This document shows positions 6,749 through 20,603 of a DNA stretch of 20,801 nt, piece after piece (within the stretch, counting starts at the first letter, position 1; the number at the start of each line of letters is the position of its first letter). The notes below the pieces were generated by a model. The model saw only the letters and a program-made list of their open reading frames with translations, did no database searches and had not been told where the DNA came from. The stretch comes from Trueperaceae bacterium (lineage in GTDB: Bacteria; Deinococcota; Deinococci; Deinococcales; Trueperaceae), in the NCBI GenBank assembly GCA_035703635.1, contig DASSXV010000024.1:1-20801 (forward strand), written 5' to 3'. A program made the position numbers and the translations under genes.

Positions 6749-8002
6749 TCAGTTGGGCAGTGAACTAGCCAACTTCGCGGCCACGTGCTTCCCTATCGCC
6801 AGGGAGGCCGTGGCCGCTGGCGACGGGGCGTTCAGCACGTGCAACGAGTGGACGCCCTCCATGAACACGAAATCATCGACCAAGCGGCCATCGCGAGCGA
6901 CCGCCTGCGCCCTCACGCCGCTATGGCCAGGCACTAGGTCGCTGGCTACGATGCTTGGCACGAGGCGCTGCAACGAGGCGACGAACGCCGCCTTGCTGAA
7001 CGACCGGTAGTACTCGTACGCCCCCACGCGCCAGAAGCGCCGCGCCAGCCGCCAGAACCCTTCGAAACCCAAGGTTCTGGCGGTGTCGTCGAGGTCGAAG
7101 GTCGTCATCTTGTAGCCCTCGCGCGCGAAGGCCAGCACTGCGTTCGGCCCGGCCTCCATGCCGCCGTCGATGGTGCGGGTGAAGTGCACGCCGAGAAACG
7201 GCAGTGCGGCGTTGGGGACGGGGTAGACGAGGTTGCGCACGAGCTCGGTGCGCGCTTGCGTGAGCAAGTAGTACTCGCCGCGGAACGGGACGATCTGCAT
7301 GTCGGGCGTTAGGCCGCAGAGGCGCGCGACGACGTCGGCATGCAGGCCTGCGCAGTTGACCAGGTAGCGAGCCGTGACCTCGAGTCCAGGCCCGTGAACC
7401 GTGACGCCGCGTCCGCCGTTCACCACGGCGCCGACCTTGGCGTTCTTGAGGACCGTGACGCCACGCCCTGTCAGCGCTTGAGCGAGTTTGCGAGCCACGG
7501 CGCCGTAGTCGGTGATGGCCGTAGTCGGCGAGTGGATGGCTTGCAAGCCGCGCACGTTAGGTTCGAGTTCCCGCAGTTCGTCCGGCCCGAGGAGCCGCAA
7601 ACCTGGCACGCCGTTGGCAACGCCGCGGCCGAGCAGCTCCTGCAGCGGGGCCAGTTCGCTCGCGTCCGTCGCCACGATCACCTTGCCGCACTCGGTGTAC
7701 GGCACGTCGTGCTCCTGGCAGAACTCCCGCAAGAGCGCCACCCCTTGGCGGCAGAGTTCCGCCTTGAAAGACCCAGGCCGGTAGTAGATGCCGGAGTGCA
7801 CGACGCCGCTGTTGTGGCCCGTCTGATGACTGCCGACCTCCGCCTCCTTCTCCAAAACCACGAGTTCGAGGTCCGGCCGGGCGCCATGCAGCGCGAGTGC
7901 GGAGGCCAAGCCGACGATGCCGCCGCCGACGATGACGACGTCGCAGTGCAGCGCTCGGTACGCCTGCTCCTTGGCGGTTGGCGTCCGCTCGACCTGTCTC
8001 AT
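6749..8002 (-). CDS. lhgO: L-2-hydroxyglutarate oxidase/dehydrogenase (FAD-dependent)
   Basis: GGGIVGLASA, HQTGHNSGVVHSGIYYRPGS, PFRGEYY, PFLGVHFT, GPNAV, GVRAQA, NAPSPAATASL. Start moved to ATG 8002, which has TATCGT 6 nt upstream. Confidence 0.9.
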   Translation of the reverse strand: MRQVERTPTAKEQAYRALHCDVVIVGGGIVGLASALALHGARPDLELVVLEKEAEVGSHQTGHNSGVVHSGIYYRPGSFKAELCRQGVALLREFCQEHDVPYTECGKVIVATDASELAPLQELLGRGVANGVPGLRLLGPDELRELEPNVRGLQAIHSPTTAITDYGAVARKLAQALTGRGVTVLKNAKVGAVVNGGRGVTVHGPGLEVTARYLVNCAGLHADVVARLCGLTPDMQIVPFRGEYYLLTQARTELVRNLVYPVPNAALPFLGVHFTRTIDGGMEAGPNAVLAFAREGYKMTTFDLDDTARTLGFEGFWRLARRFWRVGAYEYYRSFSKAAFVASLQRLVPSIVASDLVPGHSGVRAQAVARDGRLVDDFVFMEGVHSLHVLNAPSPAATASLAIGKHVAAKLASSLPN

Positions 8003-8102
8003 CCCACGACGATACTCGCTCCTGGCACTGACAGCGTCGCCGAGCGTTCCTACACTTGGCCCGGTACCTGCGAAGCGTGCCAGGAGAGGACCGTGATCTG
8101 TC

Positions 8103-8525
8103 ATGCGATCTAGCGACACCTACTTGAACTTCGACGGCAACACCATGGAGGCGTTCGAGTTCTACCGTTCCGTGATCGGCGGGGAGTTCGAGACCAAGCT
8201 CACTTACGCCGAGCTGGCGGGCGGCGGCTGGGAGCCGCCGGAGGTCGACAGGGGCCGCATCGGTCACGTAAGCCTCAGGCTCTCGGAAGCCACGGTGTTG
8301 ATGGGGAGCGACGTCTCCAGCAACCAGAGCGGCAACTTCGTGATGGGCAACAACGTCTACATCAACATCAACGCCGAGAGTGAGGAAGAAGCGCGGCGGC
8401 TGTTCGCGGGCCTCTCAGCCGGCGGCAAGGTCGAGATCGCGTTGACCACCACCGGCTGGGCCAAGCTCTACGGCAGCTTCTTCGACAAGTTCGGCGTTGG
8501 GTGGATGGTGAACCTCAGCGAGTAG
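8103..8525 (+). CDS. VOC / PhnB-like glyoxalase family protein
   Basis: YLNFDGNTMEAFEFYRSV, LMGSD, RLFAGLSAGG, WAKLYG..DKFGVGWMVN; AGGAG SD upstream. Confidence 0.88.
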   Translation: MRSSDTYLNFDGNTMEAFEFYRSVIGGEFETKLTYAELAGGGWEPPEVDRGRIGHVSLRLSEATVLMGSDVSSNQSGNFVMGNNVYININAESEEEARRLFAGLSAGGKVEIALTTTGWAKLYGSFFDKFGVGWMVNLSE

Positions 8526-8613: not shown

Positions 8614-9459
8614 ATGCTCAGGATTTCGCTTATCGCCTTGGTGCTGCTCTTGCAGGTTGCGTTCTGCCAACAGTTCAACGGCAGTTTCGTAGACGCGGCA
8701 AACGGCATAACCATCAACCTGCAACAGAATGGCGGTGCGCTGCAGGGCGTGCTGATCGGCCCGAACGGCCAGTGGCAGCTGCAGGGCAACAGCCAGCAGT
8801 CCTCCGCGGCTGGCGTAGTGCAATCCCAACAAGGGTTACTTGGGTTCCAGGCGCAACTCAGTCAAGACGGCCAGATGCTGCAGGTGGCTTTCTACGAGCT
8901 GGACGCTAACGGCAACGCCGTTGGCCAGGGCCAGCCACTAATGCTCCAACGCCAAGGCGGTGCCAGCGGTGGAGCGCCAAGCGGAGGCGTGGGTGCGCCC
9001 ATGGTTGGCGGCCAACCAGGCGCGCCCATGCAGAACGGGCAAGCCGGCTGGCCTCCACCGCCACCTGGAGCCGTGGTGTCGACCGCCCCTCCAGGCCAGG
9101 TCCCTGGTCAAGTAGCAGCTCAGACTCCAACCGCGCCGTTCGGCGCGCAACCAACGCCGCCTTTCGGCGGTGCGCCGGCGGCCAAGCAAGTCGATTGGAA
9201 CGGCACGTTCACTGGCAACAACGGCACGGTCGTGCTTGCGGTCCAGGCGGGCCAGGGTGGTTACGTCGGGTACTTGCAGGACCAGGGTCAGCGTTACCAG
9301 TTCGAAGCGCACCTAGACGACCAGACCTTGCATGGGCAGTTCATGGCCAACGGCGTCCCTTACGAGTTCTGGGTCGACCGCGAGGGCCCTGATGCCTTGC
9401 TAACCGTCGGCGAAACGACCTTCTGGTTGACGCAGACTGCCAACCAAGCGACCCCCTGA
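8614..9459 (+). CDS. Secreted hypothetical protein: two similar beta-rich domains joined by a Gly/Pro/Gln linker
   Basis: AAGGAGG SD; signal peptide MLRISLIALVLLLQVAFC; low-complexity centre. Confidence 0.8.
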   Translation: MLRISLIALVLLLQVAFCQQFNGSFVDAANGITINLQQNGGALQGVLIGPNGQWQLQGNSQQSSAAGVVQSQQGLLGFQAQLSQDGQMLQVAFYELDANGNAVGQGQPLMLQRQGGASGGAPSGGVGAPMVGGQPGAPMQNGQAGWPPPPPGAVVSTAPPGQVPGQVAAQTPTAPFGAQPTPPFGGAPAAKQVDWNGTFTGNNGTVVLAVQAGQGGYVGYLQDQGQRYQFEAHLDDQTLHGQFMANGVPYEFWVDREGPDALLTVGETTFWLTQTANQATP

Positions 9460-9473
9460 GCGGAGCGAGGAAC

Positions 9474-10145
9474 ATGCGAACGCTACGGAACTACCTGCTC
9501 ACCTGTGCCTGCGCCGCGCTCTCGACGGTGGCCGCCGCGCAGTACTACCCGTACGGGGCCGACCCAATCGGCACTGTCGGTGGCATCCTGAACGACCTGC
9601 AGGCCAGTCAGAACTACTACATGAACCAGATGGATCAGCTAGGGTTGCAGATCCAGGCGCAGTTGAACGAGTACAACAAGTACTTCATCGACCTCTACCG
9701 CACTACGACCGGGGACTTGACCTCACCCGACGCCTACGCGCTTCAGGGTGGGCAGATGATCCATTGCCAGCGCTACCCGGTCGACTGCCAGTTGGCCATG
9801 CAGGGCTCGCAGGCCGCTCAGGCTGCCCAGCAGAGTAGCTTCAACGCGTGGATGGCCGGGGTGCAACAGAAGGACGCGGCCAACGACGCCGCCTTCAGCG
9901 CGTGGATGCAGGGGCAAGCAGACCAGCAGGCTAGCCACGACGCGTACGTGCGCGGCGCCATCCTCGGAGTGAGCGAGTACGGCAACCCAGATACGGGAAC
10001 CGGCTACTACCTGCCGTTCGCGCCAGGGCAGGGCACCTACTACCAGACGCCAACCGGACTGCCCCTGGTGTTCGATCAGAGCAGAAACACTTGGTACCAA
10101 GTCGAGGTGGACGGCACATACACCCCCTACTACGAAGTCAAGTGA
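9474..10145 (+). CDS. Secreted Gln/Tyr-rich hypothetical protein
   Basis: GGAG/GAGG SD; signal peptide ending in VAAA-Q; 14 nt downstream of the previous gene. Confidence 0.8.
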   Translation: MRTLRNYLLTCACAALSTVAAAQYYPYGADPIGTVGGILNDLQASQNYYMNQMDQLGLQIQAQLNEYNKYFIDLYRTTTGDLTSPDAYALQGGQMIHCQRYPVDCQLAMQGSQAAQAAQQSSFNAWMAGVQQKDAANDAAFSAWMQGQADQQASHDAYVRGAILGVSEYGNPDTGTGYYLPFAPGQGTYYQTPTGLPLVFDQSRNTWYQVEVDGTYTPYYEVK

Positions 10146-10169
10146 CCCACTCATGTCACGTACCGCCGG

Positions 10170-12908
10170 CTAGGCGTCTGGTAGGAGGGCAGACGTAGTT
10201 GGGTGGGGCTCGAGCCCGACCTCGTCAAGCAAGAGGCTGCGGAAGCGCGCGTAGTGGCGCTGGGCCTCGCGGTTGCGACCTAGTTTGGCTAGCAGCGCGA
10301 GCAGCGCCCGCAGCGCCTCTTCGTGGAGTGGCTCGAGTTCAAGAACGCGCTTCAAGTAGCGTATGGCCGCCTCGTGTTCGCTCGGCGTCGAGGCGCTCTC
10401 GAGCGCGGCAGCGTGAAGGACCTCAATGACGTGTTCGTGCAGTGCGTTGCGCTCGTCTGCGACGGCCTGGACTTCGACGCCCGGCGCTAGCGGCCCGCGG
10501 TATAGCCCGAGCACTCGCTCGGCGTCACGCGCTTCGGTGGCGCTGCGTAACTCGTCGACGTCCGACTCGAAGTGCATGAGCCCGGCCTCGTTGAGGTAGG
10601 TCGCCACGCCCCAAGGCTCCAGCAGTTTGCGTAGCAAGTTCAATTGCACGCCCAGGTTATTGCGCTGCTTCTTGCCGTCCGCCTCTGGCCACATCGCCTC
10701 GGCCACCCCTTCACGGCTAACGTGGAGCGCGAGTAGCGTCATGAGTTCGCGCTGGCGATCGGTGAGCGCTACGGACTCCCCAAGGCGCGTAACGTTCACC
10801 GTGCCGAGGAGCCGCACCTCGAGCGGTGGGATCTCGTGCGCCCTCAACCGGATGGCGTCCTCCCAGCCGGACGCCAGCACTTCGTCAAGCGCGTACGCGC
10901 GCGCGAGTTCGGGGCGGTCACCTGGCAACGTGGACAGGGGAATGCCCGTATAAGTCAGCAACTGCTCGCTGCTGATGGCCAAGGCTAGCAGCTCGTCGAG
11001 GCGGGCTTGGCGGCGGTCGAGAACGTAGGCCGCTGCGTGCCAATGAAGGAGGAACTCCCGGTAGGCGTATGCTCCGCGCGTTTCTTCGAGGAGGGCGCGG
11101 GCGGTCGCAAGATCGCCGTTGTTGGCGTGAACCCACACGAGCTCGAGCTTGGTGAACGGGCCCACTTGCAGCGCAGGCTGAAGGCTCAAGGCGGTTCGCA
11201 GGTCGCCGGTGCGGCGCAGCGCGCGGAGCCACAGTGCGCTGGTGCGTTCACATAGTTCGAAGGCCTCCCAGCGGCGAGTGGCGGCGATGATGGCGGGGAA
11301 CGCCTCTAAGTCGCGTTCGAAGTACGCGAGCATGCCCCGGATCATGAGTTGCGCGTAGGCGTTGGCCCTCGTGGTGGCCTTGCGGAGGGCCGCCACGGCT
11401 TCCTCATCTGCGCCCGCGAGAGCGTAGCTCACGGCGAGGTTCTGGTGGAGGGTCACGTAAGCGGTGTCGTCGAGGTCGGGGTTCGCCGCGAGTTCCCGTT
11501 GGCCAGCGAGCGGCTCCTCCGAGTTGCCGTGCAGCTCCCACGCGATCAGGTAGAGGTTCCCGCGAACTTTCGTCTCTGCCAGCGTGCGCTCGATGCTGGG
11601 AGGAGCCTGCTTGGAGGCGGCCAGGCTCGCACGGAAGAGCCGCTCCGACTCGGCAAAGTCGCCGGTCACGAAGGAAAGGGCGCCGAGTTTCTGCAGTAGC
11701 AGCGCCGCGTCAGTCGGCGCCAGGTCGGGGAGCAAGGCTGCAGCCGCGCTCGTGAACGCCGCCACTTCGTCGAAGCGCCTGGCGGCGCCGAGGGCATAGA
11801 TGGCTGTGCCCGCCAGGCGCGCCCTCACGTCCTTAGCCAGACGAACATCGTTGACAAGGACGGCTGCGTCTGAGACCGTTTCATCGAAACGGTTGAGGTG
11901 TAGCCGCGCCATGGCGACGTGAGCCGCGCGCTCTGGCTCAGCGCTGGCCGGGGCGAGCTCATGCCAGCGTAAGAACGCTTCGGGCGCGTGCTGGTATAGG
12001 TCACCTTCGCCGCTAACGAGCAACTCGTGCAGGCCAGCTAGCTGGCTCGCGCGCTCGTACGCCGCTGCGCGCTGGCTGGGCGCAAGGCGCTTGGCTTGTT
12101 CGGCGAGGGTTGCGCGAACGTCGTTGGAATGGGCGTTCCTGACGCTCTCAGCTACCAGTGCGTGCAGTCGGTAGCCGTCCGCGAGGCTCTGGACGAAGCC
12201 GGACCTGGCGAGATCGCCTGTTGCTGCAACTGCCGCCTGGCGCGGGAGGTAATCGGCGGCGGCGAGGAAGAGCAGCTCGGTCCAGGCGCTGGCGCTGATG
12301 CTGCGCCTCACTCCCTCGAGCAAGCTGGCCTGCTGCGGCAGGTCGCCGGTCAGCGCAGCGAAGTGTAGTGGCAGCGACCAGCCGCGCGTGACGAGCCACG
12401 CCTCCTTCCCGCGGGTGGGGTCCTCGAAGAGCTGAACTGCCTCGTGCTCCTCGAAAGCCAGGTCGCTGCTCGTCAAGTGCACGAGCCGCCCTGCAGTGCG
12501 TAACTTCGGGAGTTCCGGGTAGGGAAGCGCTTGGCGGCTGGCGAGCAACACGAGCCCACGTGCCTGGGCTAGGAGGGGCCCGAGGTCCTCGTCGCCCTGG
12601 AGGTCCTCCAGAACCACTACCGTCTGGGCGCTCCACAGCTCGTCGTTGACGATCCCCCACGGGGCCGTCGCGGGCAGTGTGAGGCGTTGTGCTATGGCGC
12701 CGCGGGCGTCGCTGCCAGCTAGCGACAGCCACAGTACACGCCAGCCCTCACGCTCGAGAGTCTCCGCCCAGTGGCTGGCGAGCACGCTCTTGCCGTAACC
12801 GTACGGCGCTTCCAGCCACACGACGAAACCTGCCGCGTCTGGCAACTGCTCAAGCAGGCGCGGACGACGCAGGTAGTAAGGGCTCGCAGCCGGGCGGACG
12901 CTGAACAC
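10170..12908 (-). CDS. Large transcriptional activator: MalT-like N-terminal NTPase, TPR-like helices, C-terminal SARP-type wHTH + BTAD
   Basis: YLRRPRLL..LEAPYGYGKSVLA (Walker A), VVLEDL (Walker B), TRGWSLPL; C-terminal LEVRLLG..SREGVAEAMWPEAD..LNLLRKLL, LYRGPL, LELEPLHEEA, DEVGLEP. Confidence 0.85.
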   Translation of the reverse strand: MFSVRPAASPYYLRRPRLLEQLPDAAGFVVWLEAPYGYGKSVLASHWAETLEREGWRVLWLSLAGSDARGAIAQRLTLPATAPWGIVNDELWSAQTVVVLEDLQGDEDLGPLLAQARGLVLLASRQALPYPELPKLRTAGRLVHLTSSDLAFEEHEAVQLFEDPTRGKEAWLVTRGWSLPLHFAALTGDLPQQASLLEGVRRSISASAWTELLFLAAADYLPRQAAVAATGDLARSGFVQSLADGYRLHALVAESVRNAHSNDVRATLAEQAKRLAPSQRAAAYERASQLAGLHELLVSGEGDLYQHAPEAFLRWHELAPASAEPERAAHVAMARLHLNRFDETVSDAAVLVNDVRLAKDVRARLAGTAIYALGAARRFDEVAAFTSAAAALLPDLAPTDAALLLQKLGALSFVTGDFAESERLFRASLAASKQAPPSIERTLAETKVRGNLYLIAWELHGNSEEPLAGQRELAANPDLDDTAYVTLHQNLAVSYALAGADEEAVAALRKATTRANAYAQLMIRGMLAYFERDLEAFPAIIAATRRWEAFELCERTSALWLRALRRTGDLRTALSLQPALQVGPFTKLELVWVHANNGDLATARALLEETRGAYAYREFLLHWHAAAYVLDRRQARLDELLALAISSEQLLTYTGIPLSTLPGDRPELARAYALDEVLASGWEDAIRLRAHEIPPLEVRLLGTVNVTRLGESVALTDRQRELMTLLALHVSREGVAEAMWPEADGKKQRNNLGVQLNLLRKLLEPWGVATYLNEAGLMHFESDVDELRSATEARDAERVLGLYRGPLAPGVEVQAVADERNALHEHVIEVLHAAALESASTPSEHEAAIRYLKRVLELEPLHEEALRALLALLAKLGRNREAQRHYARFRSLLLDEVGLEPHPTTSALLPDA

Positions 12909-13278: not shown

Positions 13279-13307
13279 TTGACCGTTGCGGGCGGCTCTG
13301 CTATCGT
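13279..13307 (+). promoter_or_regulatory. Sigma70-type promoter of the atuA-like operon
   Basis: TTGACC-N17-TATCGT with an extended -10 TG. Confidence 0.6.
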
Positions 13308-13317
13308 CGTGCAACAA

Positions 13318-13346
13318 CTGCTGTAAGATGTACAATCTTGCAACAG
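13318..13346. promoter_or_regulatory. Palindromic operator 1 (probable RpiR site)
   Basis: CTGCTGTAAGAT-GTACA-ATCTTGCAACAG, 10/12 inverted match; similar to 20370-20399. Confidence 0.6.
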
Positions 13347-13415
13347 AGCACTTCGAGGTGGGGACCCCTCTGTGAGAGAGCCAACTCCTCGACACGTTCG
13401 CGAGAGGACCGCACG

Positions 13416-14825
13416 ATGAGCAACAACGCCGGACCCACCCTGAGGTTCTTATGCCCGAACGGACACCTCGGCTTCGCACCCTTGAAAGTCGCGAGCTTCG
13501 AGCTGGGCGTCGCCACGCGGCCCGATTTCATACTGGCCGACTCCGGTTCTGACGACATCGGGCCGGGGCCCCTCGGAAGCGACACCTCGACGGCCCCGAA
13601 AGAATGGCAACGCCATGACCTCGAGCACATGCTGCTTGCCGCTCGCGAACTCGGCGTGCCGATGCTCATCGGCTCTGCCGGCGATACCGGCTCCAACAGC
13701 CGCGTCGACATGTACGTGCAGATGATCCGCGAGATCGCGGCAGATCACCAACTGGCACCGTTCAAACTCGGGTACTTCTACTCCGAAGTGCCCAAGTCTT
13801 ACCTGCGCCGCAAGATGACCTCGGGCGACGCCGTGACTGGCCTCGATGGCCGCGGCGACCTCACCCTAGAGGAGTTGGACGCCACTGACCGCATCGTCGC
13901 CGTTGCGGGCGTGCACCCGTACATCGAACTGCTTAACCGCGGCGCCGAGGTGATCATCGGCGGACGCAGCTCCGACGCGGTCATCTTCGCGGCGCCCGCC
14001 ATCCGCGCCGGCTACCCGGAGGACCTCTCCTACTACCTCGGCAAGGTGCTCGAGTGCGCGTCTTTCAACGCAGAGCCGTACGCAGGCAAGGAGAGCGTGA
14101 TCGGTGAGATCAGCGCCGAGGATGTGAAAGTCACCGCCATGCACCCTGGGCAGCGCTGCACCGTGGCGTCCGTGGCGGGGCACGCCATGTACGAGCGCTC
14201 CAACCCTTACTTCGAGTTCGTGGCGGGAGGCATGCTCGACATGACGAACTGCCACTACGAGCAGTTCGACGAGCGCACGACTCGCGTCACCGGCCCGCGC
14301 TTTGAGAAGGCAGAGAAGGTGCGCGTGAAGCTCGAGGGTTCGGGCAAGGTCGGCGAGCGCTATATGGGGTTCGCTGGCGTGCGCGACCCGTACACCATCG
14401 AGCGCATCGATGAGGTCATCGGCTGGGCGCAGCAGCAGGTGCGTGAACGCTTCGGCGACCCAGAAGACGGCGGCTACGAGCTTCACTACCAGGTGTACGG
14501 GCGGGACGCCATCATGGGCGAGATGGACCCGCTGCGCAGCCAGCCAGGGCATGAGCTCGGCATCATGGTCTTCGGCGTGGCGCCGACCGCGGCAATGGCC
14601 GAGGAGGTCACCCTCACCGGCACGCGCCAGATGTTCTACGCACGCCTCCCAGATGTCAAGGGCACGGCGGGCGGCGTGGCGTTCCCACTCGACGAGGTGA
14701 CACGCGTGACTCCTGCCTACCGTTGGACCCTAAACCACACCGTTGCGGTCGATGATCCCCTTGAACTCTTCGAGCTTCACACTACCGACGTGGCGGACGT
14801 TGTGGCGGGCGGTGCTGAGCGATGA
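13416..14825 (+). CDS. Acyclic terpene utilization AtuA family (DUF1446) protein
   Basis: PNGHLGF, DSGSDDIGP, PMLIGSAGDTG, IIGGRSSD, GKVLECAS, SVAGHAMYE, VKLEG, AGVRDP, PAYRWTLNH. GAGG SD before ATG 13416. Confidence 0.85.
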   Translation: MSNNAGPTLRFLCPNGHLGFAPLKVASFELGVATRPDFILADSGSDDIGPGPLGSDTSTAPKEWQRHDLEHMLLAARELGVPMLIGSAGDTGSNSRVDMYVQMIREIAADHQLAPFKLGYFYSEVPKSYLRRKMTSGDAVTGLDGRGDLTLEELDATDRIVAVAGVHPYIELLNRGAEVIIGGRSSDAVIFAAPAIRAGYPEDLSYYLGKVLECASFNAEPYAGKESVIGEISAEDVKVTAMHPGQRCTVASVAGHAMYERSNPYFEFVAGGMLDMTNCHYEQFDERTTRVTGPRFEKAEKVRVKLEGSGKVGERYMGFAGVRDPYTIERIDEVIGWAQQQVRERFGDPEDGGYELHYQVYGRDAIMGEMDPLRSQPGHELGIMVFGVAPTAAMAEEVTLTGTRQMFYARLPDVKGTAGGVAFPLDEVTRVTPAYRWTLNHTVAVDDPLELFELHTTDVADVVAGGAER

Positions 14826-15145
14826 GCAGCAAGAAGCTTTCGGAACTCGCCAAGACGGTGCGGAGCAAGAACGCGGGCGTTGACCGCATCACCTTCGACA
14901 TCTTGTTCCGCGACCGCGGTAACTACGAGCTCGTCAAGAACAGCGGCGTGCTCAGCCGCGCTTCGGTGGCGGCGCTATTCAACATCGACGCCAGCCGCAT
15001 TACGGACTTCGTGGAGTACGATCCCGCCTACGCCATCAAGTTCACCATCTTGCGCCTAAGGCCGAGCGGCAGCGCTGGCGACGCGGACATCTTCGGTGCA
15101 CAGCAGTACGCGCCGCTGCTCGACGTCGAGGTGCCAGTAGCCTGA
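14822..15145 (+). CDS. DUF4387 family protein
   Basis: LSELAKTVRSKNAG..ITFDILF, AIKFTI.R..SG..GDADIFGAQQYAPLL; ATGA overlap with the AtuA-like gene. Confidence 0.88.
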   Translation: MSSKKLSELAKTVRSKNAGVDRITFDILFRDRGNYELVKNSGVLSRASVAALFNIDASRITDFVEYDPAYAIKFTILRLRPSGSAGDADIFGAQQYAPLLDVEVPVA

Positions 15146-15169
15146 GCTTCGCCAGGTAGTCTTGGTGAT

Positions 15170-16030
15170 ATGAGCAGCGAGGAGCAGTCGCCGGAAGACC
15201 TGCAGGCGCGCCTTGACCGGGCTGCCGACCAGCTCACCCCGCAGGAGCTGCGCCTTGCCGCGCACTTGGTCGAGCAGCTGGAGCGGTGGGGTTACCTCTC
15301 AAGCACGGAGCTGGCGGCCGAACTCGGGGTACACCGTTCGACCGTCGTGCGCTTCGCGCAGAACATCGGCTTCAAGGGCTACCCGGAGCTGCAGGAGAGC
15401 GCCAGGGCCGAGTATCACAAGTCGTTCTCCGTGCCCCGCGAGCTCGTCATGAGCGACATGGGCGGCCCCGAGAGCTACACCGTTCAGGCCGTCTACCAGC
15501 GCGAGCTGCAGAACCTGCAACGGAGCTATCACCTCCTTGACATCGCCGCGCTCGAGGCGACGGCCAAGAGCTTAGCCTCGGCTAGGCGCGTGCTCCTGTT
15601 CGGCAGGCGTTTCTCTCACCCGATCGCCTTGCACTTGGCGTTGGTGCTGCGGACCATGCGTGACCGCGTCGAGGTCGCGCCGCCGCCAAGCGGTACGTCG
15701 GTTGACTTGCTCTTCGACTTGGGTCCGGAGGACTTCGTGCTCGTCGTGTCTCTGCGCCGGCACTCGACCGAGGTGCAGCGCACGCTCAGGTACTTGGCGG
15801 ACGCGGGCGTGCCAGTCGCGGTCCTGACGGACGCCAGCCCAGGCAACAATGGGCCGGAGGGCGCGAGCGTTTTGCGCGCCCACGTTGGCAGTACCGGCGT
15901 GCTGGACTCCTACACGGCGCTCGTCAGCCTCAGCCACGCGTTACTCACCCTCGCAGAGGCCGCGCTGCCCAACGCGCCAGCGCGCCTGGCGCAGGCGGAG
16001 AAGGCCTGGCAGCACTTCAACAAGGATTGA
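15170..16030 (+). CDS. MurR/RpiR family transcriptional regulator (HTH + SIS)
   Basis: LTPQELRLA, STELAAELGVHRSTVVRFAQNIGFKGYPELQ; SIS domain RVLLFG, DFVLVVS, VAVLTD. Confidence 0.9.
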   Translation: MSSEEQSPEDLQARLDRAADQLTPQELRLAAHLVEQLERWGYLSSTELAAELGVHRSTVVRFAQNIGFKGYPELQESARAEYHKSFSVPRELVMSDMGGPESYTVQAVYQRELQNLQRSYHLLDIAALEATAKSLASARRVLLFGRRFSHPIALHLALVLRTMRDRVEVAPPPSGTSVDLLFDLGPEDFVLVVSLRRHSTEVQRTLRYLADAGVPVAVLTDASPGNNGPEGASVLRAHVGSTGVLDSYTALVSLSHALLTLAEAALPNAPARLAQAEKAWQHFNKD

Positions 16031-16038
16031 GGCCGGGC

Positions 16039-16782
16039 TCAGGCTGGTTGGGCTGCGCGATAGTTCGCGGCAGCTTCGACGAAAGCGAGGAAGAGCTTGC
16101 GGAACGCCGGTTGCTCCTGGGTGAGCCACTCTGGATGGAACTGCGTGCCGATGCCAAAGCCGCGGTCGGCCTCGATCGCCTCGACCCACCCGTCTGTCGA
16201 GCGCGCCGTTACCCGCCAGTGGGGCGGCGGCTTGTCGACGACCTGGCGATGGAAGCTGTTGACCCGAACCGTTTCACCCACCCAGCCGGCGAGGGCGCTA
16301 CCAGGAGTGAGTTCCACGGCGTGCGTCGTGACCGTCGCTACTTCGGTCTGGTAGTGGTTAGCCGCGCCTGGAATTGCCCCGAGGTTACGCACGATGGTGC
16401 CCCCTAGAGCCTCTGCGACGGTCTGGTGGCCGCGGCAGATGCCGAGCAGCGGCATCCCGGCAGCCCACGCGGCGCGCACGAGGCTGACCTCCAGGTCGTA
16501 GCGTACCGGGTTGGTGTCACGCAGGCTCGGGTCGGGGTTGTCGTGGAAGTACTGGCCAGGCAGCCGGCCGCCGCCACTTAGTAGGAGGGCGTCTATGGCG
16601 CCGAGCACGTCCTCTAGCCTGCCGGACGAGTCTGGGTGCGTCGGGAGGAGCAGGGGCACGCCGCCAGCGTCGGCGACGGCCTTGGCGTAGCGCGCCGCTA
16701 GCTGGAAGCGCCACTCACCGTGTCCTTCTTCGGTCACCACCTCAGCGACGTGAACGGTTATCCCAATTACGGGTGCTCTCAT
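16039..16782 (-). CDS. Gamma-glutamyl-gamma-aminobutyrate hydrolase family (peptidase C26, PuuD-like)
   Basis: PVIGIT, AGGVPLLLP, LLLSGG, GICRGHQ (catalytic Cys), VNSFHRQ, QFHPE (His/Glu); ATGA overlap with the permease stop. Confidence 0.88.
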   Translation of the reverse strand: MRAPVIGITVHVAEVVTEEGHGEWRFQLAARYAKAVADAGGVPLLLPTHPDSSGRLEDVLGAIDALLLSGGGRLPGQYFHDNPDPSLRDTNPVRYDLEVSLVRAAWAAGMPLLGICRGHQTVAEALGGTIVRNLGAIPGAANHYQTEVATVTTHAVELTPGSALAGWVGETVRVNSFHRQVVDKPPPHWRVTARSTDGWVEAIEADRGFGIGTQFHPEWLTQEQPAFRKLFLAFVEAAANYRAAQPA

Positions 16783-17675
16783 GCGGCCTCCTCTGTGGTG
16801 CTCGTTACCGTTGCCGCCTTGCTGCGGTTCACGCGGCGGAAGCGTTGCCTGCTCTTGCTTCTCGGGTCGTAGATCTCCTGCAGGCGCTCGCCGAGCAGAT
16901 TGATGGCCAGGACGAGGATGAGGAGCGCGATGCCTGGGATGGTGCTCACCCACCAGGCGATGAACAGTACGCCCCTGCCGTCCGAGATCATCGAGCCCCA
17001 TGCCGGGATGTTGGGGGGAATGCCGACGCCGAGGAAGCTAAGCGACGCCTCCAACACCATGAAGTAGCCGACGCGCAGGGTGCCGAGCACCACCGTTGCC
17101 GGGAGGATGTTGGGGATGACCTCCCGGAACAGGGTTCGTGAATGGCGTTGGCCAAGCGCTCGTGACGCCTCGACGTACTCGCGCTCAGCCTGATCGAGGG
17201 TCTGCCCGCGCGCTAACCGGTAGAACTCGACCCAGCCTTTGAGGGAGAGGGCCATCACGAGGTTAGCGAAACCGGGGCCAAGGAAGGCCATCATGCCGAT
17301 GGCGAAAATCAGGTAGGGGAAGGCAAGCAGAAGTTCGGTGAAGCGGCCGACCACGGCGTCGAAGGCACCGCGGTAGTAACCGCCGAGGGCGCCGAGCACC
17401 GTGCCGAAGGTGGCTGTGATGGCCACGGTGACCACGCCGATCAGGAGACTGACGCGGGCGCCGTAGATGGTCCGCGAGAGGATGTCGCGCCCCAGCGAGT
17501 CGGTGCCGAACCAGTGTTGCGCGGAGGGAGGTTGCAGGCGCTGGCCGAGCGAGGTTGCCTCTGGGCCGTACGGTGCGATGAGGGGCGCGAAGATGGCCAT
17601 GAGCACGTACAGCGTGATGACAGCAGCACTGACGCTCCCCAGCGGAGTCGCGATGAGCTGCTTCACCCGCTTCAC
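16779..17675 (-). CDS. Peptide/nickel ABC permease (DppC/OppC-like)
   Basis: HWFGTDSLGRDILSRTIYGARVSL, EYVEASRALG, EASLSFLGVG, WGSMI; GTGA overlap with the upstream permease stop. Confidence 0.92.
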   Translation of the reverse strand: MKRVKQLIATPLGSVSAAVITLYVLMAIFAPLIAPYGPEATSLGQRLQPPSAQHWFGTDSLGRDILSRTIYGARVSLLIGVVTVAITATFGTVLGALGGYYRGAFDAVVGRFTELLLAFPYLIFAIGMMAFLGPGFANLVMALSLKGWVEFYRLARGQTLDQAEREYVEASRALGQRHSRTLFREVIPNILPATVVLGTLRVGYFMVLEASLSFLGVGIPPNIPAWGSMISDGRGVLFIAWWVSTIPGIALLILVLAINLLGERLQEIYDPRSKSRQRFRRVNRSKAATVTSTTEEAA

Positions 17676-18679
17676 AAGGAGATCCGCGGGTTCAGCAAGG
17701 TGTAGAGCGCGTCCACGACCAAGTTGGCGGCCACGTAGGTCAAGGCGTAGAGCATGACCGCTGCCTGCACCACGACATAATCGCGCGCGAAGATGGAACT
17801 CACGACGAGCCGGCCTAAACCGGGCCAAGCGAAGATCGTCTCGACGATCATATTGCCCCCAAGCAGTTCGCCGAACTGCAGGCCCGTGACGGTGAGGGCG
17901 GGGATGAGGGCGTTGCGTAAGGCGTGCTTGATGATGACCGACCACTCACGCAGGCCCTTGGCTCGCGCGGTAGTAACGAAGTCCTTGCTTAGCACCTCGA
18001 GCATGGACGCGCGGATGACGCGCGCCAGCACGGCCGCGAAGACCACGCCGAGGGTAATGGCGGGCAGCACGAGGTGCTTGAGGGCCACGCCGAACGCCCG
18101 CAGGTCTTTGGCTAGGAGTGTGTCTATGAGCATGAAGCCGGTGGTGCGATCGACGACCATGGTCGCCGCGATGCGGCCCGACGTGGGAAAGAGCTTGAGC
18201 TCGACGGCGAACAGCAGGATGAGTAGCAGTCCGAACCAGAACGCTGGCATGCTCACACCGACAAGTGCGCCGGAGAGCACGGAGCGGTCCACAATGGAGC
18301 CTGCGCGCAGGGCGCTGATGATGCCGACTGGCAAGGCGATCAAGATGGCGACGAGCACGGTGGCCATCGTCAGTTCGATCGTGGCCGGCAGGGTGTCGGC
18401 TATCAGCTTCACGACCGGCGCGTTCTTGACGAAGCTCACGCCGAGGTCTCCGCGGAGCACGCCTGCGAGGAACAGCGCCAGTTGTGTGATGAGCGGTTTG
18501 TCGAGGTTGAGCTGGTTGCGTAATGAGTCGATCTGTTGTTGCGTTACTTGGGTCTCGCCGAGCATGATCTCGACGGGGTCACCGGGAAGGAAGCGGAGGA
18601 ACATGAACGCGAGGACCGCGACCCCTATGGCGACTGGGATGGCGGAGAGCACGCGTTCGAGTAGCTTCGTCAGTCGCAT
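17672..18679 (-). CDS. Peptide/nickel ABC permease (DppB/OppB-like)
   Basis: LPGDPV, GDLGVS, PATIEL, DFVTTARAKGL, KHALRNALIP, VETIFAWPGLG; GAAGGA SD before ATG 18679. Confidence 0.92.
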   Translation of the reverse strand: MRLTKLLERVLSAIPVAIGVAVLAFMFLRFLPGDPVEIMLGETQVTQQQIDSLRNQLNLDKPLITQLALFLAGVLRGDLGVSFVKNAPVVKLIADTLPATIELTMATVLVAILIALPVGIISALRAGSIVDRSVLSGALVGVSMPAFWFGLLLILLFAVELKLFPTSGRIAATMVVDRTTGFMLIDTLLAKDLRAFGVALKHLVLPAITLGVVFAAVLARVIRASMLEVLSKDFVTTARAKGLREWSVIIKHALRNALIPALTVTGLQFGELLGGNMIVETIFAWPGLGRLVVSSIFARDYVVVQAAVMLYALTYVAANLVVDALYTLLNPRISL

Positions 18680-18727
18680 TCGTGTCCTTCGCCCCGGTTG
18701 CGGTTCAGCTTGCGCTCGTGCGGCGCG

Positions 18728-18765
18728 GCCAGGTGGCGCCCCAGGAACTTGGGGCGCCACCTGGC
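18728..18765 (-). other. Intercistronic 16-bp perfect hairpin after the binding-protein gene
   Basis: GCCAGGTGGCGCCCCA-GGAACT-TGGGGCGCCACCTGGC; no U-tract. Confidence 0.8.
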
Positions 18766-18775
18766 TGGCGTGTAA

Positions 18776-20287
18776 CTAGTTGGTGTCGTACCCGGCTTGC
18801 TTTAGGAGCTCCTTGGCCTTGGCGGGGTCGTAAGGGTAGGGAGCGAGATCCTGAGCGTAACCGAACCCGCTCGGCAGGAAGGGCGTTGCTAGCCGGTCGG
18901 CGTAGCCGCGGTAGATGTTGGTGAGAATGCTGTCCCAGTCGATGGCGTAGTTGATGGCCTGACGCACGCGGGTGTCGTTGAACGGCGCGGTGGAGTTGTT
19001 GAGTTCGATCTGGTACGCGCGCGTGCCGAGGGCGGTGTGCACGCTCACGCCGGGCACGCTCGAGAGGCGCTCCACGAGGTCGGGTGGGACGGCCTGGATG
19101 ATCTGGACTTCACCGGCAAGGAGGGAGGCGATGCGGGTGGATGCTTCCGGCATCATCTGCCACACGACGGCCTTGAGTTTGGGAGCGCCGTTCCAGTGGG
19201 TCTGGTTCGCCTCGATGACGACTTGCGCGTCGAGCGCGCCGCGGGCGTACACGAACGGACCGGAGCCGATGGGCGCGGCCGTGAAGGTGGCTACCCCAAC
19301 TTCGGTGATGTAGTCCTTGGGAACTATCTGGAAGTGGGTGAGGGCCTGGAGCACTAGTTCCTGAGGGAAGGTGTTCTTGTACACGAGGCGGACGGTGTTG
19401 GCGTCGACCTTCTCAGCGTGACTTATCGGGCCGAGCAAGCCAGCGCGTGGGCTGGAGGCGCCGTCGATGCCGCCCTCGGTGAGGATGCGGTCGAAGGTGA
19501 AGACGACGTCGTCGGCGTCGAGCACCTCGCCGTTGCTGAACTTGACGTCTGGGCGGAGGTCGAACTCGTAGGTTAGGGGGTCTACCACGCGCCACGCGGT
19601 GGCTAGGTGAGGCTGCACCTTGCCGTCGGCGCTTGGGATGGTGAGGGCGTCGAAGATGTTGCGCAGGAAGGCCTCGTTGTCGCGGTCGCGGTACATGGCC
19701 GGATCGAGGGTGACGAGCGCGTTCGTGCGCAGACCGATGACGAGGGTGTCGGACCCGTCTACCGTGGTGAGGTGGAAGTTCTCGCTATTGTCCGCAGCTG
19801 GCTCCCAGCCGTGCACGCTGTCTGAGGACGCTTCGATGTTCTGCAGCACGTACCCGAAGGCAAGGGGGGCGTCAGCTAGGATCTGGCGCTGCGCAGTCAG
19901 GTACGCGGCGGCGCGGGCGGAGTCGTCGATTGACGTGGAGGCAACGCGGAAGGCTTCGTCGACCACGTCACTCGAGTAGAAGGAGTAGTTGCCGCGGTCT
20001 TTTGTGCGGAGCTTGGGGATGGCGAGGTCGAATGGGTCGAAGTACGCGCTGCCCCAGTCGGTTGCCGAGGCCGTGCGGTTCCCGGCGATCATCTCCTCTT
20101 TGAGGACCGTGGACTGCCAGATGCGCAGCGAGGCGTCGATGCCGATGGCTTGCAGCTGCGCGACGATGGCCTGACCTTCGTCGCTGCGGTTCTCCGCGAC
20201 GTCAAGCACGAACGTTAGTTTCTCTGCGTAGGCCGATGCGAAGAGCAGCGCGGCCAAGGGCACTAACAACCACTTCAAACGATGCAT
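18776..20287 (-). CDS. Family-5 ABC substrate-binding protein, circularly permuted
   Basis: GAAGGAGG SD; signal peptide ending in ASAYA; TLDP, YEFDLRPDVKFSNGEVLDADDVVFTFDR, PIGSGPF, DTRVRQAINYAID, YDPAKAKELLKQAGY. Confidence 0.9.
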   Translation of the reverse strand: MHRLKWLLVPLAALLFASAYAEKLTFVLDVAENRSDEGQAIVAQLQAIGIDASLRIWQSTVLKEEMIAGNRTASATDWGSAYFDPFDLAIPKLRTKDRGNYSFYSSDVVDEAFRVASTSIDDSARAAAYLTAQRQILADAPLAFGYVLQNIEASSDSVHGWEPAADNSENFHLTTVDGSDTLVIGLRTNALVTLDPAMYRDRDNEAFLRNIFDALTIPSADGKVQPHLATAWRVVDPLTYEFDLRPDVKFSNGEVLDADDVVFTFDRILTEGGIDGASSPRAGLLGPISHAEKVDANTVRLVYKNTFPQELVLQALTHFQIVPKDYITEVGVATFTAAPIGSGPFVYARGALDAQVVIEANQTHWNGAPKLKAVVWQMMPEASTRIASLLAGEVQIIQAVPPDLVERLSSVPGVSVHTALGTRAYQIELNNSTAPFNDTRVRQAINYAIDWDSILTNIYRGYADRLATPFLPSGFGYAQDLAPYPYDPAKAKELLKQAGYDTN

Positions 20288-20369
20288 GCCGTCCTCCTTC
20301 ACCCACCGGCCTTGGACGGCGGGGTGGTGCGCCACCTGTCGTACGGCGGCCTCCAGCTATGTACACGTT

Positions 20370-20399
20370 CTGTTGTAAGAACATACGTGTCTGCAACAG
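20370..20399. promoter_or_regulatory. Palindromic operator 2 (probable RpiR site)
   Basis: CTGTTGTAAGAACATACGTGTCTGCAACAG; arms match operator 1. Confidence 0.6.
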
Positions 20400-20409
20400 C
20401 CGTTGTCAA
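20380..20409 (-). promoter_or_regulatory. Sigma70-type promoter of the ABC operon
   Basis: TTGACA-N18-TATGTT on the minus strand, overlapping operator 2. Confidence 0.5.

Positions 20410-20527: not shown

Positions 20528-20603
<76 letters not shown>

Follow-up and report, generated by a model that had tools for sequence, protein, structure and literature searches.

The AtuA (DUF1446) and DUF4387 families come together in the two-subunit citramalate lyase CmlAB. According to the accessible part of a bioRxiv preprint in which the enzyme is used (10.64898/2026.01.16.699985), CmlAB, from Raoultella planticola and the I. Berg laboratory, converts citramalate directly to pyruvate and acetate, independently of coenzyme A (CoA); the available text of a 2015 paper mentions a DUF1446 gene, left unexplained, that lies downstream of the gene for methylaspartate ammonia-lyase. 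Here we analyse a 20.8-kb stretch of DNA (the window), which is the entire contig C77 of a 2.9-Mb Trueperaceae genome (88 contigs, 97.65% complete) and which carries a homologous gene pair next to genes for a Dpp-type importer, an amidase-like peptidase and an RpiR-type regulator. With moderate confidence, we read these genes as one RpiR-controlled catabolic system, with a CmlAB-like lyase, that breaks down an imported conjugate of an organic acid joined through an amide bond.

A CmlAB-like gene pair in two convergent operons

From the listing of open reading frames (ORFs), Pfam matches and a direct reading of the junctions, we identified seven genes arranged in two convergent operons, one with the AtuA-like/DUF4387 pair (the lyase operon) and one with the importer:

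13416–14825 (+): AtuA-like large subunit, 469 amino acids; PF07287, 71.8 bits (cut-off 22.8)
14822–15145 (+): DUF4387 small subunit, 107 amino acids; PF14330, 119.4 bits (cut-off 27)
15170–16030 (+): RpiR/MurR-type regulator; N-terminal HTH_6 (49.3 bits) and C-terminal SIS (44.3 bits), both over their cut-offs
16039–16782 (−): peptidase C26, class-I glutamine-amidotransferase-like amidase, 247 amino acids; PF07722, 180.2 bits; final gene of the importer operon
16779–17675 (−): PermC, DppC/OppC-type permease; Pfam OppC_N and BPD_transp_1
17672–18679 (−): PermB, DppB/OppB-type permease; Pfam BPD_transp_1_N and BPD_transp_1
18776–20287 (−): permuted family-5 (cluster C) substrate-binding protein (SBP), 503 amino acids, with a signal peptide; SBP_bac_5, 267 bits in two stretches

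Each subunit of the pair has a single strong match in a sequence search of the Protein Data Bank (PDB). The AtuA-like protein matches citramalate lyase subunit A (cmlA; 9erq_A/9evf) over residues 9–460 (E = 4.3e-72), and the DUF4387 protein matches subunit B (cmlB; 9erq_B; E = 6.6e-21). The large subunit was modelled with AlphaFold from 37 orthologues (predicted local distance difference test score, pLDDT, 88.2), and the model superposes on 9evf_A with template modelling (TM) scores of 0.87/0.89 (Foldseek, E = 4e-52); in the same search no other PDB structure exceeded a TM score of 0.2, the next matches lying at about 0.13. The 9evf entry, released on 2025-10-08, is titled as a complex of citramalate lyase, ADP and pyruvate. 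The view taken in an initial annotation of this DNA, that the chemistry of AtuA/DUF1446 and DUF4387 proteins is poorly defined, is outdated now that the two-subunit CmlAB has been solved (PDB 9ERQ/9EVF): the family is no longer an orphan, and its chemistry is known through CmlAB, its sole characterised member. Our literature search, whose coverage may not extend to a primary CmlAB paper, found no description of the clade reported here or of CmlAB itself; it yielded only the preprint and the 2015 remark cited above.

The large subunit is identical to CmlA at about one third of its residues (32% as aligned by Foldseek), whereas the AtuA-like orthologues of the 80 loci described below are 54–96% identical to each other across phyla. 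Furthermore, neither methylaspartate ammonia-lyase (PF07476) nor glutamate mutase E (PF06368) was found in the 97.65%-complete genome. Judged by these comparisons, the window pair is a separate, tightly conserved clade and not a CmlAB orthologue.

The gene families listed above are those of the initial annotation, and Pfam bears all seven of them out. The junctions confirm its two convergent operons with an 8-nucleotide (nt) gap: the RpiR stop codon (16028–16030) and the C26 stop codon (16039–16041) are separated by exactly 8 nt, and a scan for intrinsic terminator-like sites between the operons found none. Translational coupling within the operons, which had also been claimed, applies to part of the junctions. 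The AtuA-like stop overlaps the DUF4387 start in an ATGA, as do those of PermC and C26, and PermB and PermC share a GTGA, but DUF4387 and RpiR are 24 nt apart and SBP and PermB 96 nt. The SBP gene starts behind a GGAGGA ribosome site. The limits originally given for the locus, 13279 and 20409, are not gene starts; each is the base at which a sigma-70-like −35 box begins.

Linkage of the pair to importers and amidases

A scan of one genome per species returned 166 loci with relatives, and the best 80 of these were searched with the seven window proteins; all counts given here refer to these 80 and to features within 9 kb of the lyase gene. Locus ORFs were called heuristically, passed through a filter on GC content at third codon positions and clustered, and recurrent clusters were named by Pfam and NCBIfam. 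DUF4387 accompanies the large subunit in 77 of the 80 loci. An amidase of some kind occurs in 54/80, either a C26 enzyme (34/80) or an autoproteolytic N-terminal nucleophile (Ntn) hydrolase of family C45 (21/80), and both occur at a single locus (1/80, L045). Dpp-type permeases are found in 50/80 loci and RpiR in 20/80, all of them Deinococcota. The neighbourhood check proposed in the initial annotation thus came out in its favour, with importer plus amidase beside the lyase in 45/80 loci.

The arrangement of these genes varies with lineage. Eighteen Deinococcota loci share the exact convergent layout of the window. Two Bacillota loci have everything in one co-directional operon that includes both ATPase genes, in the order GntR-SBP-B-C-D-F-AtuA-DUF4387-C26 in a Peptococcaceae genome (L022) and SBP-B-C-D-F-C26-AtuA-DUF4387 in Sporosarcina (L049). 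Proteobacterial loci run SBP-B-C-D-F-C45-(sensor-less sigma-54 activator)-AtuA-DUF4387. Bacillaceae replace the importer with a DctM-type permease and a 101-amino-acid membrane protein and keep C26, and Betaproteobacteria have a TctC receptor after the lyase pair, with no amidase seen in these TctC-containing loci. The C26 type of amidase belongs to Deinococcota and Bacillota, the C45 type mostly to Proteobacteria. Across these loci the lyase pair is constant, and the transporter, amidase and regulator are swapped for non-orthologous proteins of the same role, which is the pattern expected of one pathway. That the two operons form one functional unit, as initially proposed, is supported by the shared layout in 18 Deinococcota loci, by the single operons at L022 and L049 and by the rare paired promoter motif described below.

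The C26 protein has 3fij, 7d4r and PuuD (6vtv) as its best PDB matches and keeps two motifs, GICRG (residue 115) and HPE (residue 217), which we take to form the catalytic triad. Its score against the PuuD equivalog NF008471 is 101.2 bits, far under the cut-off of 266. C26 enzymes such as PuuD release glutamate. Because the C26 enzyme is replaced by the unrelated C45 hydrolase in 21/80 loci, the common requirement seems to be an amide bond, which is not necessarily gamma-glutamyl. The earlier proposal of an imported gamma-glutamyl or amide conjugate is therefore supported as to the amide; the gamma-glutamyl part is weakened by the score below the PuuD cut-off and by the C45 replacements.

The clade occurs in Deinococcota, Bacillota, Alpha-, Beta- and Gammaproteobacteria, Actinomycetota and Thermodesulfobacteriota. 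It is present in 26 of 301 sampled Deinococcota genomes (24/102 in the family to which the window belongs) and in 8 of 301 sampled Bacillales genomes, a patchy distribution as expected of an accessory catabolic trait. Its setting is always a catabolic one, so that the clade points to an orphan pathway with a certain ecological reach.

Some genomes carry the AtuA-like/DUF4387 pair in duplicate within a few kilobases (L097/L098, at G177:C1:3732389-3742275; L013; L076); in genome G177, one copy lies inside a Dpp–C26 operon and another stands alone. Further neighbours of the pair, some recurrent and some seen once, are an MTTB-family methyltransferase, an ornithine-racemase-like protein (398 bits, cut-off 480) together with an EamA exporter, and a two-subunit CoA transferase (L065:11644-13161; 3′ of C26 in L022/L023/L047; L069:6788-8545).

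Promoters, putative regulator and importer

A scan of the window for sigma-70-like consensus promoters found 5 sites against 1.0 expected, including one at the head of each operon:

13279–13346 (+): lyase operon promoter and operator; TTGACC-17-TATCGT (13279–13307), direct TGCAACA half-sites at 13310 and 13339
20370–20409 (−): importer operon promoter and operator; TTGACA-18-TATGTT (20409–20380), inverted half-sites

The importer promoter matches the consensus at 10 of 12 positions. Its half-sites straddle the −10 box, with CTGTTGCA (20399–20392) in the −35/−10 spacer and ACAACAG (20376–20370) just after the box, and the half-sites of the lyase operon lie directly after the −10 box. The window contains 5 copies of TGCAACAR, whereas 0.95 would be expected. 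Both arrangements are conserved among 16 Deinococcota upstream regions of each kind: the direct pair on the lyase side, at a spacing of 29–30 nt, is found in 14/16 (with at least one site in 16/16), and the inverted pair on the importer side, at a spacing of 22 nt, in 13/16. In the whole 2.9-Mb genome there are only 4 half-site pairs at a spacing of 15–35 nt, 2 of which are these promoters. A rare, conserved paired motif at both promoters supports a dedicated local regulator. Most simply, this would be RpiR, a putative repressor of both operons through the paired half-sites, which is assigned to them by adjacency only. RpiR reached no equivalog cut-off in NCBIfam.

Two further copies of TGCAACAG, at 8720 and 9862, lie inside the coding frames of two unknown genes (8614–9459 and 9474–10145), whose proteins have no Pfam or NCBIfam match. 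A 912-amino-acid STAND/TPR/BTAD regulator follows at 10170–12908 (−), and in L003–L005 the genes of the interval 8614–12908 are found in synteny ahead of the lyase operon. Elsewhere in the window, NagA (N-acetylglucosamine-6-phosphate deacetylase; 1374–2597, −; 227.6 bits against a cut-off of 225.65) is apparently unrelated to the system.

Four sludge RNA libraries gave contigs on both operons at low depth, one of which, 1.3 kb in length (15438–16747), spans the convergent stops. As these are contigs only, with DNA carry-over possible, they demonstrate neither transcription nor co-induction of the operons. A joint 17722>19484, seen in two runs and having one side of 22 nt, probably comes from other organisms. 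Just past the importer promoter lies a tRNA-Lys(CTT) gene (20528–20603, +), on which the RNA-library contigs are far deeper than on the operons.

The binding protein of the importer is circularly permuted, as the initial annotation had recognized: its domains come in a swapped order compared with solved chains. SBP residues 193–501 correspond to residues 43–370 of a canonical chain, its N-terminal two thirds, and residues 33–146 correspond to canonical residues 382–504, in its C-terminal part. The best 120 of 2678 homologues (E ≤ 0.001) are 49–99% identical to the SBP over 88–100% of the query. On the structural model (pLDDT 91.9), canonical chains superpose on residues 176–503 only (Z about 27), the part of the model that sequential aligners reach. 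The matches include YliB, DppA and GbpA (Z = 26–27.5), and cluster C chains that bind glutathione, opines, sialic acid, nickel or peptides tie at Z = 24–27.5, so the ligand is not readable from the SBP fold.

Among the SBPs of related loci, 18 are permuted (15 Deinococcota, 1 Bacillota metagenome-assembled genome (MAG) and 2 unclassified MAGs), 26 have the canonical order and another 3 are truncated where their contigs end. In a tree of the common part, the 19 permuted rows, including the window SBP, form one clade (support 100/99) that adjoins canonical Bacillota proteins of the same system. On the evidence of this tree, the permutation has a single origin. Of the 25 family-5 genes in its own genome, only that of the window SBP is permuted. 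The available text of PMC4990184 describes TpMglB-2 of Treponema pallidum, a binding protein of cluster B, as circularly permuted; our literature search found no described natural permutant of cluster C.

No oligo_HPY ATPase gene was found in the importer operon of the window by ORF listing or Pfam, a point that the initial annotation does not raise. The genome encodes 28 DppB-like and 28 DppC-like permeases and 25 family-5 SBPs, with only two oligo_HPY ATPase pairs, on contigs C16 (33343–37786) and C32 (631–4732), each next to its own permeases. About 26 Dpp-type permease pairs are consequently without ATPase genes of their own. The missing ATPases are thus a genome-wide habit, which suggests that ATPases are shared.

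Proposed pathway, alternatives and relation to known systems

Clues to the product come from genes that follow the lyase pair in other genomes, among them several Bacillales and Alphaproteobacteria. Lysinibacillus and ‘[Bacillus] enclensis’ have the operon GntR-AtuA-DUF4387-LhgO-DUF3870-CsiD, and in 4 of the 8 clade-bearing Bacillales genomes, equivalog-level LhgO and/or GlaH lie directly 3′ of DUF4387, in two orders. Scores for these neighbours are 600 bits for LhgO (cut-off 299) and 448 bits for CsiD/GlaH (cut-off 333; Pfam CsiD, 430 bits). A fifth Bacillales genome, as well as the loci L050 and L028, has a succinate-glutarate CoA-transferase-like gene and an acyl-CoA dehydrogenase gene adjacent, and L056 the dehydrogenase only; these genes come after the lyase genes in Neobacillus niacini and a Pseudogemmobacter, with the dehydrogenase only in Actibacterium. 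Two alternative glutarate routes behind the same genes in unrelated genomes argue that glutarate is a product. A small DUF3870 protein sits beside the Bacillales glutarate genes of either route (L049, L051, L052, L101, L102).

The window itself contains one gene of this kind:

6749–8119 (−): LhgO; NF008726, 542 bits (cut-off 299); the single copy in the genome, 5 kb from the lyase

It is absent at this position in the closest relatives (L003–L005). We considered this gene as a member of the regulon and rejected it: no paired motif lies ahead of it, and it is not kept beside the system in other Deinococcota loci.

In the pathway that we propose, the Dpp-type importer, made up of the permuted SBP and two permeases, would take up the compound, powered by ATPases that other parts of the genome encode. 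Its amide bond would then be cut in the cytoplasm by the C26 cysteine amidase, and the CmlAB-like two-subunit, nucleotide-binding enzyme would split a carbon–carbon bond of a hydroxy-(poly)carboxylate intermediate, without CoA. RpiR would repress both promoters at the TGCAACA pairs, which overlap or follow the −10 boxes, until a pathway intermediate bound at its SIS domain frees it from the DNA. By analogy with the lyase-adjacent routes of other genomes, glutarate may be one end product. A CmlAB-type lyase would release it from an acid of the 3-(2-carboxyethyl)malate type, which would fit the neighbouring genes; alternatively, the amide itself may be a glutaryl- or gamma-glutamyl-type omega-amide, which would fit as well. 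As substrates we considered gamma-glutamyl peptides, glutaryl amides, homoisocitrate-type acids, hydroxymethylglutarate and citrate- or oxoglutarate-containing siderophore fragments, and settle on none of them.

Several observations weigh against the pathway in this form. Identity to CmlA is low enough that the predicted reaction could differ. RpiR-type regulators usually sense sugar phosphates, a poor fit with an organic acid. No amidase, importer or DctM permease was found in 18/80 loci, several of which are on short contigs and 10 of which carry TctC, so the amide step is not universal; the simple ORF heuristic is, in addition, imperfect in high-GC locus DNA. As to glutarate, the relevant genes are adjacent in only 7/80 loci and in no other Deinococcota locus, the CoA-transferase and dehydrogenase matches fall under their NCBIfam cut-offs, LhgO lacks the paired motif, and a search of the genome of the window found LhgO alone, without CsiD/GlaH.

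A bolder version of the proposal is that the clade is a new glutarate-forming lyase in an undescribed, widespread route that would bring an amide-linked natural compound into glutarate metabolism, present in at least five phyla and accompanied by the first natural permuted cluster C SBP. In one candidate reaction, an acid of the 3-(2-carboxyethyl)malate (homoisocitrate) type would be split without CoA into glyoxylate or pyruvate plus glutarate. We put this forward tentatively and consider it rather unlikely to hold in full.

The pair could instead be a plain citramalate lyase like CmlAB, with the importer and amidase supplying glutamate or a citramalate conjugate. Citramalate cleavage is the activity of the sole characterised relative, and the match of the C26 protein to PuuD (6vtv) would suit an enzyme that releases glutamate. 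In the available text of PMC4682846, glutamate is the entry of the methylaspartate pathway, which ends in citramalate. However, the PF07476 and PF06368 enzymes of such a route were not detected in this nearly complete genome, the clade is far more similar internally than to CmlA, and what surrounds it are genes for amidases, importers and glutarate metabolism rather than mal or glm genes. We regard a plain citramalate lyase as unlikely.

The glutarate genes that directly follow the pair in several genomes would also be compatible with a pair that is no lyase here. Its nucleotide site could serve, for example, to open or activate a lactam, an imide or a carboxylate at the expense of ATP, giving a glutaramate-type omega-amide that C26 or C45 would then hydrolyse to glutarate. 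The solved relative binds ADP, according to the title of 9evf. C26 has a glutaminase fold, and glutaramate is glutamine minus its amino group, a line of reasoning that would fit this scheme. However, we know of no AtuA/DUF4387 family member that performs such ATP-dependent chemistry, the scheme is a matter of inference only, and the Dpp-type, DctM and TctC transporters suggest charged, peptide-like or carboxylate substrates. This makes it quite improbable.

Finally, the two operons might have nothing to do with each other, one importing peptides or glutathione and encoding a gamma-glutamyl hydrolase and the other being an organic-acid lyase operon, as the glutathione binders YliB/GsiB and GbpA among the closest solved SBPs and the 18/80 lyase loci without importer and amidase would allow, but this is very hard to reconcile with linkage to the lyase in 45/80 loci from several phyla, with single operons in Bacillota, with the rare paired motif at both promoters and with the retention of linkage when amidase and transporter are swapped for non-orthologous proteins.

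The single RpiR-controlled system with a CmlAB-like lyase, which we continue to prefer, offers several experimental handles: two interchangeable amidases, three interchangeable transporters and the glutarate modules behind the lyase genes in some genomes. Cultivable carriers include Neobacillus niacini, Lysinibacillus sphaericus, Sporosarcina, Thioclava marina and Meiothermus rufus. A permutation of single origin within one orthologous SBP group is a natural experiment on binding-protein topology, and the roughly 26 permease pairs without their own ATPase genes suggest ATPase sharing in the Dpp-type transporter family.

The system shares parts with several described systems and differs from each of them. 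Like CmlAB, it has an AtuA-family large subunit and a DUF4387 small subunit with the same two-gene architecture, the same fold and clear homology, but its genes are accompanied by those for an importer and an amidase, and not by mal and glm genes. The C26 enzyme shares its Pfam family, its Cys and His-Pro-Glu motifs and the PDB matches 6vtv and 7d4r with PuuD/SpuA; in contrast to these, it ends an importer operon and has no glutamine-synthetase-like ligase gene beside it. The importer resembles DppABCDF and GsiABCD in its family-5 SBP and its DppB- and DppC-like permeases (Pfam, NCBIfam), whereas its SBP is permuted and no ATPase genes are adjacent. With TpMglB-2 it has in common the natural permutation of an ABC-transporter binding protein whose bilobed fold is kept, although TpMglB-2 is a sugar-binding protein of cluster B and the window SBP belongs to cluster C/SBP_bac_5. 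Modules of glutarate catabolism (GlaH/CsiD with LhgO, or a CoA-transferase with glutaryl-CoA dehydrogenase) follow the lyase genes in Bacillales relatives; the two operons of the window include no such module, and its putative link to the lyase product is drawn from those relatives.

The closest counterpart is the proteobacterial operon of Dpp importer, C45 hydrolase, sigma-54 activator (enhancer-binding protein), AtuA and DUF4387, for which our literature search found no published description. The two have orthologous lyase pairs (66–75% identity), orthologous Dpp permeases (38–53% identity) and the same importer–amidase–lyase logic. However, the window has C26 in place of C45, RpiR with sigma-70-type promoters in place of a sensor-less sigma-54 activator, a permuted SBP, no ATPase genes and two convergent operons.

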